Below, in pieces: positions 20,267-37,151 of a stretch of 64,000 nucleotides of DNA. Both the position numbers and the translations under genes were made by a program. Below the pieces are notes generated by a model. It saw nothing but the letters and a program-made list of their open reading frames with translations, did no database searches and was not told the origin of the DNA. The stretch's first letter is position 1. Each line of letters starts with the position of its first letter. This stretch comes from Escherichia coli (GTDB lineage: Bacteria; Pseudomonadota; Gammaproteobacteria; Enterobacterales; Enterobacteriaceae): the NCBI RefSeq assembly GCF_003018235.1, contig NZ_CP027437.1; one strand, 5' to 3'.

Positions 20267-21835
20267 TTAGCGTGCCGGCTGAGTAGTCGTGGAAGACTGC
20301 TCAAAGTGATAGCGACCGGTTTTCAGGCTGCTTGGGCCGAGGCGTGCAAACTTGAACATTAAGAACAATTCTGCCACCAGGAACAGGGTATACAGGCCGC
20401 AAATCAGCACCATTGAGAAGATGAGATCGCCTGCGGTCAGTGACGAGTTCGCCACAGCTGTCGGCAGCACTTCACCGATAGCCCACGGTTGGCGGCCATA
20501 TTCAGCCACGAACCAGCCCGCTTCTACAGCAATCCACGGCAGCGGAATACCGTACAGCGCGGCGCGCAGCAGCCATTTTTTCTCGCCAATGCGGTTGCGG
20601 ATGACACTCCAGAAAGAGAGCGCGATGATTGCCAGCAGCAGGAAGCCACACGCAACCATGATACGGAACGCGAAGTACAGCGGCGCTACACGCGGAATGG
20701 AGTCTTTGGTTGCCTGTTGAATCTGCGCTTCAGTCGCATCAGCCACGTTTGGCGTATAGCGTTTCAGCAGCAGACCGTAACCGAGGTCTTTCTTCATGCT
20801 ATTGAACTGGTCACGAACCGCCTGGTCGGTAGAACCAGAACGCAGTTGCTCGAGCAGAGAGTACGCCTTCATCCCGTTACGAATGCGTTCTTCATGCTGC
20901 ACCATCAGTTCTTTCAGGCCGATAACTGGAGTATCCACGGAACGCGTTGCAATGATGCCCAGCGCGTAAGGGATCTGGATCGCAAATTTGTTCGTCTCCT
21001 CTTCCTGATCAGGAATGCCGAACAGAGTAAAGGCAGCAGGCGCAGGTTGCGTTTCCCACTCGGCTTCAATAGCAGCCAGTTTGGTTTTCTGCACGTCGCC
21101 CATTTCGTAACCAGATTCATCACCCAGAACAATAACAGACAGAACGGCAGCCATACCGAAGCTGGCAGCGATAGCAAAGGAGCGTTTAGCGAAGGCGAAG
21201 TCACGACCTTTCAGCATATACCATGCGCTGATACCGAGGATGAACATCGCGCCAGTCACATAACCAGACGCTACAGTGTGAACGAATTTCACCTGAGCAA
21301 CCGGGTTAAGCACCAGCTCGGAGAAGCTCACCATCTCCATACGCATAGTTTCAAAGTTGAAATCGGACGCGATTGGGTTTTGCATCCAGCCGTTCGCAAC
21401 CAGAATCCACAGTGCGGACAGGTTTGAACCGAGCGCCACCAGCCAGGTGACACACATATGCTGAACTTTACCCAGACGATCCCAACCGAAGAAGAACAGA
21501 CCTACAAAGGTGGATTCGAGGAAGAAGGCCATTAGACCTTCGATTGCCAGCGGCGCACCGAAGATATCCCCTACATAGTGGGAATAGTAAGACCAGTTAG
21601 TCCCGAACTGGAACTCCATGGTCAGACCGGTAGCCACACCCAGAGCGAAGTTGATACCAAACAACTTGCCCCAGAACTTGGTCATATCTTTATAAATCTG
21701 TTTGCCGGAAAGGACGTAGACCGTTTCCATAATGGCCAGCAGGAACGCCATACCGAGCGTCAGTGGCACAAAAAGGAAGTGGTACATCGCGGTCAAGGCA
21801 AACTGTAAGCGCGACAGTTCGACTATATCTAACAT
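20267..21835 (-). CDS. cydA: cytochrome bd-I ubiquinol oxidase subunit I
   Basis: 522 aa (start at second Met, [14 protein letters not shown]); synteny. Confidence 0.95.
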
Positions 21836-22172
21836 CATGACTCCTTGCTCATCGCATGAAGACTCCGAGAGTGAACCCCGTTAGAAAGGGTCACACGCAT
21901 GCCCCAATACAAAATTATTTGCTCGCCTCTATCGTTGCCATTTCATCAAAAGAGGAAAAGACAATGATAAAAAAGTTACAAATATGTTAATGAATAAACC
22001 AAATTGATCCCGTAATTATATTACGCCGCAAAATCCTTACAATAAACAGGTTTTTATTGAGCAAATTTGCATTTTTCGACAGTGATCAATTTATAGCGAA
22101 ATTGTCACGATCTCACCAATTTGATCTACGACAATTTATCGTGTTTTGCAGATTTTTTTCAAGAATTAAAAA

Positions 22173-22186
22173 TTGATTTATATCAA
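22173..22186. promoter_or_regulatory. FNR box in cydA upstream regulatory region
   Basis: TTGATTTATATCAA fits TTGAT-N4-ATCAA consensus about 340 bp upstream of cydA ATG; weaker TTGATctacGACAA at 22119–22132. Confidence 0.6.
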
Positions 22187-22640
22187 AACCAACCAAATAT
22201 GTTAATTATGTATAAACCATAGATCATTGGTGATTTTATTGTTAATTTATTGTGAAATATTTATGCAACACAATTATTACAATGAAAAGGTATAGATAAA
22301 AAACCAGTGTTTTATTTAACAGAACCGCCCTATCCACTTTTTATAATACCAATTGATTAGATTAGCCAATTTGTTGCTATTTTACATAACATATTTTTAT
22401 CAAAGTTAATTGATTGTTGCCTTTATGAGCACCGGCCGTAAGCCCGTTATGTTATTGTTTCATTAGTAATAATCACTTAAATGTATCGATGAAACAGGTA
22501 TGACTTAGCGGGAGTGATTGTTTCTGAGTGAACAGAGACCACTTTCGCCTGATAAATGAAAAATGAGCGATTTTTGCAAGTTAGTTTTTCTATAGCCGAG
22601 TACGCTCAGCGCCTCGCTTGATTACAATGAGGTTGCTGCT

Positions 22641-23585
22641 ATGAGTCCTGATAATATCAGTTCTGCTGTCAATCGCTTCTCAGGTTGGCCATCTAATGAT
22701 CCTCTAAAAACAGATAAAGAATCAATGACATCACCCATGACTGTGCAGGTAATAAAGATGATTGCCGCCATCCTTGATCCACATCGGATAGTCGTTGGAA
22801 TCGATACACTTTATACAACGCAGCGCGAAACATTTACCTCAGAGAGTCAACAGCTCATTGAATCAGCATTGCAAACACTTCATGTGATGAATTTAAATAA
22901 CCTGGAAACAAATCTCGATGAGGAAGGTCACTATCTGGCTTTTGGATATAACGTTGACACTCCTGACAGAATAACCGTTTCTGCTTATAATGAAAAAAAG
23001 CCTGGCTGCTATGGTCAATGTCTTTTAATACAGGATGACGAAACAGACTTATTTAACCTGATAAAAGTTAAAATTTTTGAAGCCAGGCATAATTATGTCG
23101 CTCAATTGATGAGCGATCCGGAATTTATGTTCAAATTTAGTTATAGCGCTCAACAAAATAGATTAGAACCTCATCTTCTGGTTCCCACTTATTTCCCTCT
23201 AAAAACAAACGAACCGGTTACGCAAGAGGATGTACTGTTACTTTATCGTTTCTTTAAAATGGATGGTGATTTTAATATATTAACATCAGATGAATACATG
23301 AGTATCATGACACCTCTGATGAAGTGTGAGCGCAGCATCCACGACCACAACAGGTATGTGACGGGCAAAGATACCCTTCTTCTGGACTATCCTCCTTCTG
23401 GTAACCAGATATATTTCCATATTTTTCCTGACGAATCAGCAACACTAGTCCTTTATTTTTCAAACAATGACATTGAATGTTTCGTCTTTGAAAGAGATAT
23501 TCCGAGCCAGTATCGCTTTTTCAAAATGTTTACCAATCTGGCACTGGTTATTGATCAGTTAACCGATGCCAATCAAATACTTTAA
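22641..23585 (+). CDS. hypothetical protein (314 aa), AT-rich, no recognisable motif
   Basis: Long ORF with low GC (about 35–39% by eye) relative to flanks; acidic; no similarity I can recall. Confidence 0.6.
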   Translation: MSPDNISSAVNRFSGWPSNDPLKTDKESMTSPMTVQVIKMIAAILDPHRIVVGIDTLYTTQRETFTSESQQLIESALQTLHVMNLNNLETNLDEEGHYLAFGYNVDTPDRITVSAYNEKKPGCYGQCLLIQDDETDLFNLIKVKIFEARHNYVAQLMSDPEFMFKFSYSAQQNRLEPHLLVPTYFPLKTNEPVTQEDVLLLYRFFKMDGDFNILTSDEYMSIMTPLMKCERSIHDHNRYVTGKDTLLLDYPPSGNQIYFHIFPDESATLVLYFSNNDIECFVFERDIPSQYRFFKMFTNLALVIDQLTDANQIL

Positions 23586-23665
23586 TTTTTATATATTCCC
23601 TGTGGCAAATATTGCCAAACAATGCCCGGGGATTAATTTTTATTACTCACGGAAAGATTTAAATA

Positions 23666-24088
23666 ATGATCCCATCTCAAATCTCTTTCAACACCCTTCC
23701 TGTCAATGCAACATACGCTTCAGAGACAACAGTTGACACACAAAAATTCTCTGACATCCTCTACTCAGCGGGGTGTTCCCTAAAGGATCTGGCTTATCTG
23801 AGCAGATGTCTGGCATCAATACATCCGACTATCGCCAAAAACATTTATGAAACAGAAAATCTCAGCGATCAAAAATTACTGCATATTGATTGCCGTAGTA
23901 CAAATGAAATCAAGATAAATATCTTTTTTGGTCAACAACGAGAAGGATTAATTGAAATTAATTCTGACACTGTCATTTTTCCGATATTGTCTTCATTAAT
24001 TGACTCCGCCATTTCTAAATTTCAACACCAAATCCCCGTTAACGGTTCAGTAAATCCTGACCTATTGTATGAGGATTATACTGATTAA
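23666..24088 (+). CDS. hypothetical protein (140 aa), AT-rich, acidic C-terminus
   Basis: ORF immediately downstream of the 314-aa ORF in same orientation and composition. Confidence 0.5.
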   Translation: MIPSQISFNTLPVNATYASETTVDTQKFSDILYSAGCSLKDLAYLSRCLASIHPTIAKNIYETENLSDQKLLHIDCRSTNEIKINIFFGQQREGLIEINSDTVIFPILSSLIDSAISKFQHQIPVNGSVNPDLLYEDYTD

Positions 24089-24634
24089 ATCCACCCAGTC
24101 GCGAAAATGGCCTGCGTTATTGCCAGACGTAATAAAACTTTTGATTAACGTTACTCGTACTGGTAGCACCTTCATGTACTTTTCTTTTTTACGAAAAATC
24201 AAAAGAGCTAACAAAGGTCATAATTCGCATGAATCATTAATTATTTGTTATTTTCAACATTATTTTTACATTAAGCAGAGATGAATTGCAGTGAAATTCG
24301 ACTTAACTTTTATGAAATGCATTTACTCATGGCTAAAGCCACGTCACAAAAATGCAAATTAGAAGTTGATCACAATTATCTCAATACATCAAATCAAGTT
24401 AATTTTAAAAATTTAACATTCATGACATTAGTTGACATAACACACTGAATTAAAATGAGAATTTGAAAACACACTTTAAACAATCATTTCCCGAAAGACA
24501 TTTTGAAAATAGATCAATTGCAACATTACGGTCAGATAAAGACACTCCTGTGATATTAAACCTGTGCCGTTATGAGCGGCCATAAATACGACGTGTGTAA
24601 CTTATTTTACTCTCTGTCTTACAAAGGATTACCC

Positions 24635-25084
24635 ATGAAGAAAGCAACACTTGTGATTGGCGTTATTGGCGCGGACTGCCATGCAGTAGGCAATAAAGTT
24701 CTGGACCGCGTTTTTAGCAACCATGACTTCAGAGTTATTAATCTGGGCGTAATGGTCAGCCAGGACGAATATATTGATGCTGCCATTGAAACTGGTGCTG
24801 ACGCGATTGTCGTCTCCTCTATCTATGGGCATGGCGATATCGATTGTCTGGGCATGCGCGAACGCTGCATCGAGCGTGGGCTGGGTAACATCCTGCTCTA
24901 TGTGGGCGGTAACCTGGTGGTCGGAAAACATGACTTCGCTGACGTGGAAACCAAGTTCAAAGAGATGGGATTTGATCGCGTCTTTTCCCCAAGTCATGAC
25001 TTAGAAGATGTTTGTCAGCTGATGGCCCACGATATCAACCAACGTCATAACGTTGATACTCGCATTCTTGAAGAGGCAATCTGA
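24635..25084 (+). CDS. glmS: glutamate mutase sigma (B12-binding) subunit
   Basis: 149 aa from [21 protein letters not shown]: canonical DxHxxG cobalamin-binding motif and strong similarity to clostridial MutS/GlmS; RBS AAAGGA. Confidence 0.88.
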
Positions 25085-32413: not shown

Positions 32414-34065
32414 ATGTCCAAACCATTTATCTGGCAAGAACCGTTTCTACAAAATAAAGACGGTACAGAATATACATTAATTAGCGATCAACATATTACA
32501 GTAACGGAATTAGACGGCGAAGAAGTGATAAAAATCGCTCCTGAAGCATTAACGCTGCTTGCCCGGCAGGCATTTTATGAAGCCTCTTTTTTCTTACGTT
32601 CCGCTCATTTGCAACAGGTCGCCAGCATTCTTAACGATCCGCAGGCCAGTAGTAATGATAAATACGTTGCGTTGCAGTTATTACGTAATGCTGAAGTCTC
32701 AGCAAAAGGGGTATTACCCAACTGTCAGGATACCGGCACCGCAACTATTGTTGCCAGTAAAGGGCAACAGATATGGACGGGAGGTAACGACGCTGAAGCC
32801 TTAAGCAAAGGCATTTACAGTACTTTCCAGGAAAATAATCTGCGCTTTTCACAAAATGCGCCGCTGGATATGTATACCGAAGTCAATACGCAAACCAATC
32901 TCCCGGCGCAGATTGATATCAGCGCTGTCGCTGGTAATGAGTACCATTTTCTCTGTGTTAATAAAGGGGGCGGCTCCGCCAATAAAGCCGCACTTTATCA
33001 GGAAACCAAATCCTTATTGCAACCAGAAAAACTGACCGCATTTTTAATCGAAAAAATGAAATCGCTGGGCACCGCTGCCTGCCCGCCTTACCACATCGCC
33101 TTTGTCGTCGGAGGGCTTTCAGCCGATCAAACCTTAAAAGTTGCCAAGCTGGCCTCTACGAAATATTACGACAATTTGCCCACCAGCGGAAACGAGCAGG
33201 GACAAGCATTCCGTGATATTGAGCTGGAAAAAGTGTTGCTCGAGGTCAGTCAGCAATTTGGTATTGGTGCGCAATTTGGGGGTAAATATTTCGCTCATGA
33301 TATTCGCGTCATTCGTCTGCCGCGTCACGGTGGCTCTTGCCCGATAGCTATGGCGCTCTCCTGTTCTGCCGATCGCAATATCAAAGCAAAAATTAACAAG
33401 CACGGTATCTGGCTGGAAAAACTCGAACACAATCCGGGGCAATATATTCCAGCCTCACTGCGGGAAGAAAATCACGCGCAACATGTACAACTGGATCTAA
33501 ACCGTCCGTTGCGTGACGTGATGCAGGATCTCGCCAGATTACCGGTAGGCACCCGCGTGTCGTTAAGTGGTCCCATCGTAGTGGCACGCGATATCGCCAC
33601 GCCAAAATAAAAGCGCGGCTGGATAACGCCGAACCGATGCCGGATTACCTGAAGCATCATATTGTCTATTACGCTGGCTCGGCGAAAACACCGGAGAACA
33701 TGGCCTGCGGTTCACTGGGTCCAACCACGGGCGGTCGAATGGACGGTTATGTCGATACCTTCCAGGCGGCTGGCGGCAGTCTGGTGATGTTATCGAAAGG
33801 TAACCGCAGCCAGCAGGTCACCGATGCCTGTCACAAACATGGTGGCTTCAATCTGGGTAGTATTGGCGGTGCAGCTGCGTTACTGGCGCAAGAATATGTC
33901 AAAAGTCTGCGTTGCCTGGAATACCCGGAGCTGGGTATGGAAGCGGTGTGGATGATGGAAGTGGAAAATCTGCCCGCATTCATCCTGGTAGATGATAAAG
34001 GCAATAATTTCTTTAGTCAGTTTGAGCAGCAACACCGCTGCGCCAGTTGCCCTGCGGGACATTAA
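32414..34065 (+). pseudogene. fumD: class I fumarate hydratase family (FumD-type mesaconase), interrupted by apparent 1-bp deletion near 33595
   Basis: ORFs 32414..33610 and 33637..34065 are N- and C-terminal parts of one FumA-like protein; C-part frame reads ...[20 protein letters not shown] continuously upstream, offset one base from ...[11 protein letters not shown]. Confidence 0.75.
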
Positions 34066-34680: not shown

Positions 34681-34712
34681 CTGCGCCTGGCATCCCGCCA
34701 GGCGCAGGTTTT
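34681..34712. terminator. bidirectional terminator between adenosyltransferase gene and LysR gene
   Basis: Hairpin CTGCGCCTGG(catcccg)CCAGGCGCAG followed by TTTT. Confidence 0.6.
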
Positions 34713-35616
34713 ACATCTCCTGCGGTACAACCGATTTCGCCAGCAACCATTCACGAAATTGCTGCAAGTGCGGTGAGTCAGACTTCTCTTCCTGCCACGT
34801 CATAATAAAACGATTACCGGTACGAATAGGCACATCACAGGGGATCACCATATCGCCACTATCCAAATCATGTTGAATAGCGAAACGTGGTAACAGCGCC
34901 ACGCCGAGATTAGAGCGCACGGCGGCAATCAGCATTGAAAGCAAATCGAAACGTGGTCCGTTGTTGACCAGCGGACTGCTAACGCCAGATAAGGCAAACC
35001 ACTCTTCCCAGCCAGTAATACGGGTACTTTGATGCAGAAGTGGTAACTCTGTAAGCAGTTCTGCCACTGACAGTTTTTGATCGGACATTGCAAGCAAACT
35101 GCCGCTGCATACCGGCAAAATCTCCTCATCAAAGAGATATTCTACTTCCGCCCAGGGCGCGCAAAAATTTTCGCGCATAATGACAGCATCGTACTCCCGA
35201 TTAAGAAAATCGCCGTTATTAGCTAAAGAGTGAATATTAACAATAATATCGGGATGTAACTTTGTGAATTCATGTAAATTTGGGATTAACCAGTGGGTAC
35301 TAAACGTAGGATTCACGGCAAGTTCAATAACCTGAACCGTAGGCTGCCAGGTCATAATGGTATTGGTATCGCGTTCCAGCTTATTTAATGTTTCTTTTAC
35401 TATCCCCAGGTAATACTTCCCTGCATCATTAAGAAAAATACGTTTTTTAGAGTGTGAAAATAACGGAGTATGTAAAAATTCCTCCAGCGCACTCACTTGT
35501 CTGAATACTGCACTTTGGGTCAACGCTAACTCCTCTGCCGCTTTGGTATAACTTTCATGACGTGCGACGACCTCAAAAGTCACCAGCAGCTCCGTTTTAG
35601 GTATTTTTCCTCGCAT
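34711..35616 (-). CDS. LysR-family transcriptional regulator
   Basis: 301 aa; N-terminal HTH (TKAAEELALTQSAVFRQVSALE) and LysR substrate-binding domain. Confidence 0.85.
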   Translation of the reverse strand: MRGKIPKTELLVTFEVVARHESYTKAAEELALTQSAVFRQVSALEEFLHTPLFSHSKKRIFLNDAGKYYLGIVKETLNKLERDTNTIMTWQPTVQVIELAVNPTFSTHWLIPNLHEFTKLHPDIIVNIHSLANNGDFLNREYDAVIMRENFCAPWAEVEYLFDEEILPVCSGSLLAMSDQKLSVAELLTELPLLHQSTRITGWEEWFALSGVSSPLVNNGPRFDLLSMLIAAVRSNLGVALLPRFAIQHDLDSGDMVIPCDVPIRTGNRFIMTWQEEKSDSPHLQQFREWLLAKSVVPQEM

Positions 35617-36182
35617 AATGCCGTCCCTTAAAAATAGTTTAAACCATCAAAAATACATTACTTATTACGAAGTAATGGTAACCAAAGCAGCAATAAATAA
35701 TTTATAAGAATCATGATTGACATTTATAACCCAGTAAGCCTGGCGTGACAAATATCTTAATCAGATAATAATAATCCGAAAAGCACAGCGCCTTTCGAAT
35801 TATCCGGAATCACATTAAGTGAAAATTATTAAATTGATATCATTTATCATATCTGTGGATATTATGATAAACAATCAACAAAGATTTTATTTTTGATTTA
35901 TAGCATATCCCTCTAAGAATTTTTGCGATGCTGCAATATCCGGGGTAAAGACCCGATCCTGGCTGACAAATGGCACGACTTGACGATAAGCGGTGAACAT
36001 CGCTTTTGTTGATTTACTTAACGCTACGGTCAAACGCTGGGAAGCCAGTGCATCAGGTAACGATTCGAAATTCGCCGTCGTTCTTATTCGTGGCTTGCGG
36101 TCGGTTGCGGCAATCCACAGTGGCTGTGGTCATGCAGTCAAGCCAGCGGTCAGATTTCGACCGTGGTTAACATTTAAGGCAT

Positions 36183-36281
36183 AAAAAAGGCCATCATACG
36201 ATGGCCAACCATGTCGAAACCGACAGCCCTTCGCCATTCCTGTAGAGGGAAGCGGCGAGGGCTATTTCTTATTACAGATAT
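36183..36281 (-). ncRNA. sdhX: probable 3'-UTR-derived sRNA SdhX (RybD) with intrinsic terminator
   Basis: Region directly after sucD stop ends in hairpin GGCCATCGTATGATGGCC plus U-run on minus strand; identity by position, not sequence match. Confidence 0.45.
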
Positions 36282-37151
36282 TTATTTCAGAACAGTTTTC
36301 AGTGCTTCACCGATATCCGCCAGGCTGCGAACGGTTTTCACGCCTGCGGCTTCCAGAGCAGCGAATTTCTCATCCGCAGTCCCTTTACCACCGGCAATGA
36401 TGGCACCCGCGTGGCCCATACGTTTGCCTTTCGGCGCAGTCACACCAGCGATGTAACCCACAACAGGCTTGGTAACGTGCTCTTTGATGTACGCAGCCGC
36501 TTCTTCTTCAGCGCTACCGCCGATCTCACCGATCATCACGATCGCTTCGGTCTGCGGATCTTTTTCGAACATTTCGAGGATGTCGATAAAGTTAGAGCCA
36601 GGGATCGGGTCGCCGCCGATACCGACACAGGTCGACTGACCGAAACCGTAATCCGTGGTCTGTTTAACCGCTTCATAGGTCAGTGTACCGGAACGGGAAA
36701 CGATACCCACTTTACCCGGTTTGTGAATGTGACCAGGCTGGATACCGATTTTGCATTCACCCGGAGTGATAACGCCTGGGCAGTTCGGGCCGATCATACG
36801 AACGCCAGCTTCGTCCAGTTTCACTTTCACAGTCAGCATATCCAGCGTCGGGATGCCTTCAGTGATGGTGATAATCAGTTTGATGCCTGCATCAATAGCT
36901 TCCAGAATGGAGTCTTTGCAGAACGGTGCTGGTACGTAGATAACAGAAGCGGTAGCGCCAGTAGCAGCAACAGCTTCACGCACGGTGTTGAACACCGGCA
37001 GGCCGAGGTGGGTGGTGCCGCCTTTACCTGGGGTTACGCCGCCAACCATTTTAGTGCCGTATGCAATGGCCTGTTCTGAGTGGAAAGTCCCCTGGCTACC
37101 GGTAAAGCCCTGGCAGATAACCTTGGTGTTTTTATCAATTAAAATGGACAT
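36282..37151 (-). CDS. sucD: succinyl-CoA synthetase alpha subunit
   Basis: 289 aa; CoA-binding motifs. Confidence 0.95.

Follow-up and report, generated by a model that had tools for sequence, protein, structure and literature searches.

The gap upstream of glmS and its setting

Within a stretch of 64,000 nucleotides of the Escherichia coli contig NZ_CP027437.1, referred to as the window in the following, an intergenic gap separates an open reading frame (ORF) for 140 amino acids, called hyp140 here, from glmS, the first gene of a glutamate mutase operon (Table 1). glmS is followed by glmL, glmE and genes encoding methylaspartate ammonia-lyase, an AtuA-family protein, a DUF4387 protein, a dicarboxylate/amino-acid symporter and the class I fumarase FumD, and then by cobO. 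The island carrying these genes is the glutamate (methylaspartate) mutase cluster of E. coli O157:H7 described by Kronen and Berg (PMC4682846), who found no condition that gave expression of the cluster in this organism; theirs is the only expression study that came up. A search of the literature yielded no publication that assigns a promoter, start site, operator or regulator to the operon, and searches using the O157 Sakai locus tags returned nothing relevant. The first-pass annotation of this DNA had called the regulation of the operon an open question, and since no inducing condition was found in O157:H7 (PMC4682846) and nothing newer has come to light, this description still holds. The question is a niche one, even though the cluster, which encodes a B12-dependent route from glutamate to mesaconate/citramalate, occurs in about one fifth of the complete E. 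coli genomes, including O157:H7 and B2 strains, and in many Citrobacter, Klebsiella and Salmonella arizonae. Gap and operon together were present in 1135 of the 5426 complete E. coli genomes.

The gap had been described as long, AT-rich and non-coding, and this is confirmed by its length of 546 bp, by its G+C content of 0.322 (the window as a whole has 0.502, the operon 0.51) and by the absence of any RefSeq feature in the gap of all 1135 genomes. An Rfam search over positions 21800-24800 (E <= 10) returned only spurious matches to eukaryotic snoRNAs and miRNAs. The low G+C content is not limited to the gap, as values of 0.25-0.40 were found across 21839-24634, compared to 0.50 for the window. 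Small ORFs of 71, 55 and 40 amino acids within the gap were rejected as genes because 1-nt indels in a divergent allele (L082) break them. The RefSeq locus tags jump by one number between hyp140 and glmS (AM446_RS19510 and SS17_RS03965 are missing in the tables of L001 and L083), which suggests that a feature was formerly annotated in the gap and later withdrawn.

Table 1. Features of the glmS upstream region and its surroundings, with positions counted from the first letter of the window; distances with a minus sign are relative to the predicted transcription start
Feature	Position	Strand	Remarks
cydA	20267-21838	minus	
ORF, 314 amino acids, unannotated function	22641-23585		G+C ~0.37
ORF hyp140, 140 amino acids, unannotated function	23666-24088		G+C ~0.37
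hyp140-glmS intergenic gap	24089-24634		546 bp, G+C 0.322; from the stop of hyp140 to the glmS ATG at 24635
Distal gap	24089-24477		G+C 0.30; variable columns 76/391 (19%), 1-nt indels
CRP-like 22-mer AAATTAGAAGTTGATCACAATT	24356-24377	+	16/22 matches to the textbook consensus; centre ~-186
Proximal gap	24478-24634		variable columns 3/157 (1.9%)
Operator-like element ACAATCATTTCCCGAAAGACATTTTGAAAATAGATCAA	24480-24517	+	no variation among 5 E. coli alleles
Predicted -35, TTGCAA	24518-24523	+	TTG invariant, directly after ATCAA, in 24/24 Enterobacterales
Predicted -10, GACACT (nAnAnT)	24541-24546	+	A2, A4, T6 and 17-bp spacing in 24/24 Enterobacterales
Predicted transcription start	24552-24554	+	inferred from the hexamers
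Predicted 5' untranslated region, ~82 nt	24553-24634	+	Shine-Dalgarno AGGA at 24625-24628; 2/81 columns variable in E. coli
glmS, B12-binding subunit S of glutamate (methylaspartate) mutase	24635-25084	+	first gene of the operon; Pfam PF02310; RefSeq; variable columns in coding sequence 27/450 (6.0%)
GcvA-like LysR-family regulator gene	34711-35616	-	Pfam HTH_1 and LysR_substrate

A conserved segment directly upstream of glmS

Variation within the species was examined by aligning five E. coli alleles, namely those of the window, O157:H7 SS17, E2348/69, TUM13936 and MFDS1019527. The two parts of the gap differ strongly in their share of variable columns (Table 1; Fisher p = 4e-9 for distal versus proximal), and constraint on the proximal 157 bp exceeds even that on the coding sequence of glmS. 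In the most divergent allele the distal gap differs at no more than 18% of the positions, which approximates the synonymous divergence of the flanking genes (pS 0.10-0.25) and implies that the distal 390 bp evolve roughly neutrally. As part of the explanation favoured below, and with the same slight preponderance of probability, conserved function would be confined to the ~157 bp nearest to glmS (24478-24634), and most of the conspicuous AT-rich gap would then call for no functional explanation.

For a comparison beyond E. coli, a scan for GlmE using one genome per species yielded 80 loci, of which about 30 were from Enterobacterales and had the same operon order. The operon is the immediate, divergent neighbour of cydA in Citrobacter, Klebsiella and Salmonella enterica subsp. 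arizonae, where the two ORFs found between cydA and the gap in E. coli are absent. The AT-rich cydA-glmS intergenic region of these three measures ~1215 bp. Its cydA-proximal 350-480 bp are 82-87% conserved between E. coli and these three, and on the glmS side homology to other genera is recognisable from ~24190 onwards, with the first cross-genus conserved columns near 24194. Conserved flanks together with ORFs absent elsewhere indicate that E. coli carries an insertion of ~1.9 kb with two ORFan genes inside the ancestral cydA-glmS intergenic region. Judged from these alignments, most of the so-called leader is the ancestral upstream region of glmS, while the first ~100 bp of the gap, which have no counterpart in other genera, are probably part of the E. 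coli-only insertion. Since no co-directional gene precedes glmS in Citrobacter, Klebsiella and S. arizonae, the operon's own promoter must sit in the homologous region.

When the upstream regions were aligned by anchoring on ATCAA, the arrangement ATCAA-[TTGnnn]-17 bp-[nAnAnT] was found to be kept in all 24 Enterobacterales sequences, with 17-bp spacers that are unrelated between lineages. The hexamers flanking this spacer are TTGCAA and GACACT in E. coli, TTGCTT and GAAACT in Citrobacter, TTGCCT and CACACT in Escherichia sp. ESNIH1, TTGTAT and CACATT in Yersinia, TTGTGT and CACATT in Budvicia, TTGTTT and CACATT in Morganella, and TTGCAG and CATATT in Yokenella. Comparable hexamers were seen in the three betaproteobacterial sequences (TTGCTG-17-GAAAAT, TTGGCG-17-ATAAAT and TTGCGC-17/18-TAGATT); two of these three have nAnAnT at 17 bp, and Azoarcus has either CTAGAT at 17 bp or TAGATT at 18 bp. 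Depending on the genus, the ATG follows the -10 hexamer at anything from 58 to 254 nt, which argues for a promoter followed by an untranslated region of free length rather than for a translational or RNA element. As the hexamers agree with the consensus at no more than 7 of 12 positions, an activator is to be expected, and the need for one is consistent with the failure to detect expression under laboratory conditions (PMC4682846). To judge from the pattern of conservation, the module looks like a weak, activator-dependent sigma-70 promoter. As this predicted promoter lies ~82 nt before the ATG, the comparative evidence speaks against the earlier view of the whole gap as a leader: about 460 bp of it would be upstream DNA and not transcript.

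Other assignments in the proximal and distal gap were tried and dropped. TATTAA (24554-24559) as a -10 element has no counterpart in Yersinia, Budvicia, Morganella and Yokenella; TTGACA (24432-24437) as a -35 element lacks a suitable -10 and is not conserved, with position 24435 varying within E. coli; and a sigma-54 reading of the TTGC fails for want of the -24 GG. A second, upstream promoter might have its extended -10 at 24446-24454, where an invariant TG precedes an A/T-rich hexamer; this is a doubtful assignment, and the motif is badly formed and varies in E. coli.

Abutting the predicted -35 is the operator-like element. It contains a TGA-N7-TCA dyad (24504-24516) of the pattern T-N11-A, a GATC (24512-24515) and the invariant ATCAA (24513-24517), and conservation extends upstream to ~24480 (ACAATCATTT...GAAAGAyATTTTGAAAATAGATCAA), spanning about -75 to -36 as counted from the predicted start. 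In an alignment of 15 genera with a mean column identity of 59%, the only fully invariant block is TTTTGAAAATAGATCAATTGC (24501-24521). The 17-mer TGAAAATAGATCAATTG is identical in 24 loci, namely in 23 species representatives of the Enterobacteriaceae and in a second E. coli strain, and it is unique in the window even when three mismatches are allowed. Recognisable variants of the element are found in Yersinia, Budvicia, Morganella and Yokenella as well as in alpha- and betaproteobacteria; the dyad is invariant as TGA-N7-TCA in Enterobacteriaceae and reads TGA-N7-TCG or TTG in alpha- and betaproteobacteria. A repeat search gave only short two-copy matches of no evident meaning, and a comparison by eye with the consensus sequences for IHF, ArgR, Lrp, Fur, Nac and NarL gave only partial matches. 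Promoter and ~40-bp element are thus both supported by comparative sequence evidence.

Candidate regulators of the operon

The island's only recognisable regulator gene encodes a GcvA-like LysR-family protein. Against the NCBIfam GcvA subfamily model this protein reached 221 bits, which is under the cut-off of 288 bits, and its closest solved structure is that of GcvA (PDB 8y6u, 2.8e-42). The first-pass annotation had placed the gene at the far 3' end of the island and convergent to the operon, which is correct, and had considered this position atypical for a LysR regulator. The orientation in E. coli is indeed convergent; however, this layout is conserved in most of the Enterobacteriaceae loci examined, which have lysR within the island, convergent and at its 3' end, whereas in three betaproteobacterial loci (L030, L031 and L035) a LysR homologue with 45% identity is divergently adjacent to glmS, as is classical for LysR regulators. 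The short intergenic region shared by LysR gene and glmS in the betaproteobacterial loci contains a related element (CTGATGATATATCGTTTGC, CTGAGTATATATTGCTTGG and TTGAGGAAACATCGTTTGC). In L030 and L035 this element is 27-38 bp away from the start codon of the LysR gene, and a similar TTGnnn-17-hexamer arrangement comes after it. LysR-type regulators use interrupted dyads of the type T-N11-A, with a textbook recognition site at -65, and the TGA-N7-TCA dyad fits this pattern. In Morganella, where no LysR gene was found within 10 kb, the TGA half of the dyad is lost. A block located ~100 bp upstream of lysR, AAATCATGGnnTGGATCAATGAC, occurs in Citrobacter, Klebsiella, Salmonella, Pluralibacter and Lelliottia (L007, L015, L016, L021, L003 and L026); it stands directly before a near-consensus TGACAn-17-TATAAC pair and has the core GATCAAT in common with the glmS element. 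On these grounds the GcvA-like LysR protein is the most likely binder of the element, a call that could go either way.

Overall, a weak sigma-70 promoter combined with an operator-like element and activated by LysR is the best explanation of the region, and we consider it rather more probable than not by a small amount. According to this explanation, the promoter TTGCAA-17-GACACT would start the transcript near 24553, and the LysR regulator, encoded 10 kb downstream, would bind the element, with its dyad centred near -43, and activate the operon with a pathway metabolite as the signal. The CRP-like site at about -186 may add catabolite control, and the AT-rich rest of the gap would be a natural substrate for silencing by H-NS in E. 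coli. The delineation of promoter and operator is new, and the proposed mechanism, with LysR activation, possible CRP input and H-NS silencing, is conventional. Fixing the promoter and a ~40-bp operator narrows the question of regulation to one start site, one element and one regulator.

Several observations weigh against this explanation. Morganella retains most of the element without a LysR gene within 10 kb, and Budvicia (L018) as well as the alphaproteobacterium L029, which carries the 13-mer CTGAAAATAGATC exactly, keep the element with no LysR homologue within +/-10 kb. The core common to the glmS and lysR sites is only ~7-10 bp long, and no clear second copy of the element was found when the lysR upstream region of E. 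coli was searched. The betaproteobacterial versions of the element end in TCG and not in TCA, and the centre of the dyad at about -43 is nearer to the promoter than the textbook position of -65. A scan for consensus promoters and terminators, which detected no terminator, also reported no plus-strand promoter at its threshold of 9 and hence missed the module, which scores 7/12. Finally, the start site, the binding of LysR and the inducer are all inferred.

A comparison with known LysR-dependent promoters (gcvT/GcvA, metE/MetR and benA/BenM) reveals both parallels and deviations. Shared features are the weak -35 and -10 hexamers, a conserved region of ~40 bp from about -75 to -32 that abuts the -35, the T-N11-A dyad and a cognate LysR gene in the island, divergent and adjacent in the betaproteobacteria. 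The MetR dyad is TGAA-N5-TTCA, which the TGA-N7-TCA of the element resembles. In contrast to these systems, the regulator gene of the Enterobacteriaceae is ~10 kb away and convergent, and the dyad lies near -43 instead of -65. The CTAAT-type motif reported for GcvA is absent here. A more far-reaching version, which appears decidedly speculative to us, holds that the element is the operator of a GcvA-like LysR protein whose gene once stood divergently, as it does in betaproteobacteria, and was relocated to the far convergent end of the operon in Enterobacteriaceae while the operator remained at the promoter, that the operator-promoter unit travelled between alpha-, beta- and gammaproteobacteria, and that binding sensitive to Dam methylation could make expression heterogeneous. 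The Dam site GATC is invariant in the operator core (24512-24515) and is also present within the upstream GATCACAA, and there is a precedent for methylation-sensitive binding in OxyR at agn43. If this version were true, heterogeneity linked to methylation might explain the absence of activity in bulk cultures.

An involvement of FNR is possible and forms a weaker reading than LysR. As background, FNR sites of class II promoters are centred near -41.5, and those of class I promoters at -61.5 and beyond. In a class II arrangement, TGAAA-ATAG-ATCAA (24504-24517) would be the FNR site, from which FNR would bring RNA polymerase to the weak promoter; the centre of this 14-mer would be at about -42 to -42.5 from the predicted start. 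The ATCAA (24513-24517), invariant in 24 of 24 Enterobacterales and located 23 bp upstream of the -10, has the appropriate geometry, the operon neighbours the FNR/ArcA-controlled cydA region with its perfect FNR site at 22173-22186, and the pathway includes the oxygen-labile class I fumarase FumD (PMC4682846). However, the left half TGAAA matches TTGAT at only two of five positions, a better TTGAA is off by one base (N5 spacing), and 24504-24517 is not among the 52 matches with <=2 mismatches described below. The left halves also vary between genera (TGACA, TTACT and TCAAA), the betaproteobacterial versions have ATCGT or ATTGC in place of ATCAA, and an invariance over ~40 bp far exceeds the needs of an FNR dimer. 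In addition, anaerobic O157:H7 cultures with glutamate and cobalamins showed no activity and no induction of the enzymes (PMC4682846). Set beside the FNR class II promoters of nirB, narG and pflB P6, the region is similar in its invariant ATCAA ~23 bp upstream of the -10, its poor -35 and its anaerobic-type pathway; it differs in that a second half-site at N4 is missing, that the conserved region is much longer and that ATCAA is not kept outside Enterobacterales. All in all, FNR as the class II activator appears unlikely.

The first-pass annotation had itself pointed to an FNR-like half-site further upstream, at 24366-24380, and had seen no convincing full site. The latter is correct, as no match to TTGAT-N4-ATCAA with <=1 mismatch exists in 24089-24634. 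The sole match with two mismatches is the string TTGATCACAATTAT at 24366-24379, and such matches occur at chance frequency (52 in the window versus 36.6 +/- 6.6 in shuffles). Reading this string, TTGATcacaATTAT, as a degenerate FNR site for anaerobic induction is hardly tenable: the TTGAT half is perfect in this strain, but it is replaced by TCGAT, CAGAT or TTGCT in other genera, and what is conserved across genera is the overlapping GATCACAA. Positions 24367, 24376 and 24379, at or beside bases of the proposed site, vary in E. coli, and the string sits about 186 bp upstream of the conserved promoter, at about -181 relative to the predicted start. The only perfect FNR consensus nearby (TTGATTTATATCAA) is located at 22173-22186 upstream of cydA, at the outer edge of a block conserved across genera (21738-22186), and presumably belongs to the cydAB control region already known. 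With that region, which responds to FNR, ArcA and H-NS, the glm operon has in common that in Citrobacter, Klebsiella and S. arizonae it shares a single AT-rich intergenic region of ~1.2 kb with cydA, whereas in E. coli the two halves are parted by the ~1.9 kb insertion and the FNR site lies 2.4 kb from glmS.

The conserved core GATCACAA (24368-24375), which covers the supposed FNR half-site, reads TTGTGATC on the other strand and thereby corresponds to the CRP half-site TGTGATC. Of the 20 upstream regions from Enterobacterales that were scanned, the window included, 18 have it at a fixed distance from the promoter, and L022 and L024 lack it; variants are GCTCACAA in Klebsiella, TATCACAA in Salmonella arizonae and GATCACAC in Yersinia. 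The right half of the CRP-like site is TCACA/GATCACAA, while the left half is AAATAAGA-like, TTAGA or TAAGA and not TGTGA, resulting in 12-16 of 22 consensus matches across the loci. Taken as a single sequence, the CRP match is at chance level (26 matches versus 28 expected). Variation of the site among the E. coli alleles is confined to 24367, its central base, and to 24376 in the flank. In Enterobacteriaceae the centre of the site is found between about -184 and -188, compared to about -210 to -218 in Yersinia, Budvicia and Morganella. The value of about -186 is off the standard CRP positions (-41.5, -61.5, -71.5, -82.5 and -92.5), and the distance would be about -94 if the doubtful extended -10 at 24446-24454 were taken as the reference. 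It is therefore plausible that 24356-24377 is a CRP-type site, one that would be too far upstream for standard class I or class II activation. Like CRP-dependent catabolic promoters, the region has a conserved TGTGATC half-site, with G7/A8 kept in many genera and variation within E. coli at central and flank bases; the deviations are the centre ~186 bp upstream, the AAATAAGA left half and the absence in L022 and L024. Yokenella and a related Enterobacter carry a perfect TGTGA-N6-TCACA ~50 bp further upstream. The genera other than E. coli additionally share distal blocks ~350-400 bp upstream of glmS (alignment columns ~270-345, e.g., L007 7739-7768), which include a plus-strand promoter-like pair TTAACA-18-TAAGAT and a second CRP-like site CCGTTA-N6-TCACA, both degenerate in E. 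coli.

Silencing of the AT-rich acquired DNA by H-NS could be dominant, with the element mainly serving as a site of H-NS nucleation or anti-silencing. The low G+C content of 21839-24634 fits this idea, as does the lack of expression in laboratory media (PMC4682846). In addition, TAGATCAATT matches the published high-affinity H-NS motif, TCGATAAATT, at 8 of 10 positions. On the other side stand the facts that H-NS sites are not normally invariant over ~40 bp across genera and that the element also occurs in the G+C-rich intergenic regions of betaproteobacteria. As the dominant mechanism H-NS silencing is unlikely, if still to be taken seriously, and it would be compatible with LysR activation as an extra layer. 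Control at the RNA level, by an adenosylcobalamin riboswitch, an attenuator or a leader peptide in a long transcribed leader that starts far upstream or is reached by read-through from hyp140, is very improbable. Arguments in its favour are that glutamate mutase is B12-dependent, that the stretch from hyp140 to glmS contains no predicted intrinsic terminator and that the TG with its A/T-rich hexamer at 24446-24454 could serve as an upstream extended -10. Nevertheless, Rfam (E <= 10) gave no match in the region, RNAalifold on the predicted untranslated region of 15 species returned -0.57 kcal/mol with no covarying pair, and the single-sequence fold was no better than that of shuffled sequences (z = -0.32). 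The distal 390 bp diverge at about the synonymous rate with indels breaking the small ORFs, hyp140 is absent from all other genera, and Citrobacter amalonaticus lacks 27 nt of the putative untranslated region. A covarying hairpin at ~24562-24582 was rejected as well, as RNAalifold found no consensus structure and the segment is missing in C. amalonaticus.

Neighbouring genes and island boundaries

The ORFs of 314 and 140 amino acids upstream of the gap gave no family match in Pfam, NCBIfam, PHROGs or PADLOC, and among the loci examined they occur in E. coli only. They are intact in the five alleles with pN/pS (the ratio of non-synonymous to synonymous divergence) of 0.16-0.62 and are probably real genes. 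They may have a regulatory role. In Yersinia, Budvicia, Morganella, Yokenella and Buttiauxella (L018, L019, L020, L023, L025 and L002) the operon is instead preceded by genes related to cobalamin or sirohaem, which, judged by eye from their translations, encode proteins resembling uroporphyrinogen-III methyltransferase, the N-terminal part of CysG, a PduX-like kinase and a BtuF-like binding protein.

In the window, a 1-nt deletion in a run of C at ~33596, relative to strain AR_0067 with its single gene of 1653 bp, breaks fumD up into the ORFs 32414-33610 and 33637-34065; in this strain the split gene is either a pseudogene or the result of a sequencing error. In the enteropathogenic E. coli strain E2348/69 (L084, 3997-5441) an ISEc13 transposase truncates the operon right after glmS, followed by remnants of mngA and mngR, so that this strain retains the promoter region and glmS without the pathway. 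The right junction of the island is variable (window 35617-36300 versus L001 29819-31950). In the window, lysR directly meets the sucD side and mngR, mngA and mngB are absent, a junction found in 859 genomes, whereas strain AR_0067 has an RtcB-family gene together with mngB/mngA at this position.

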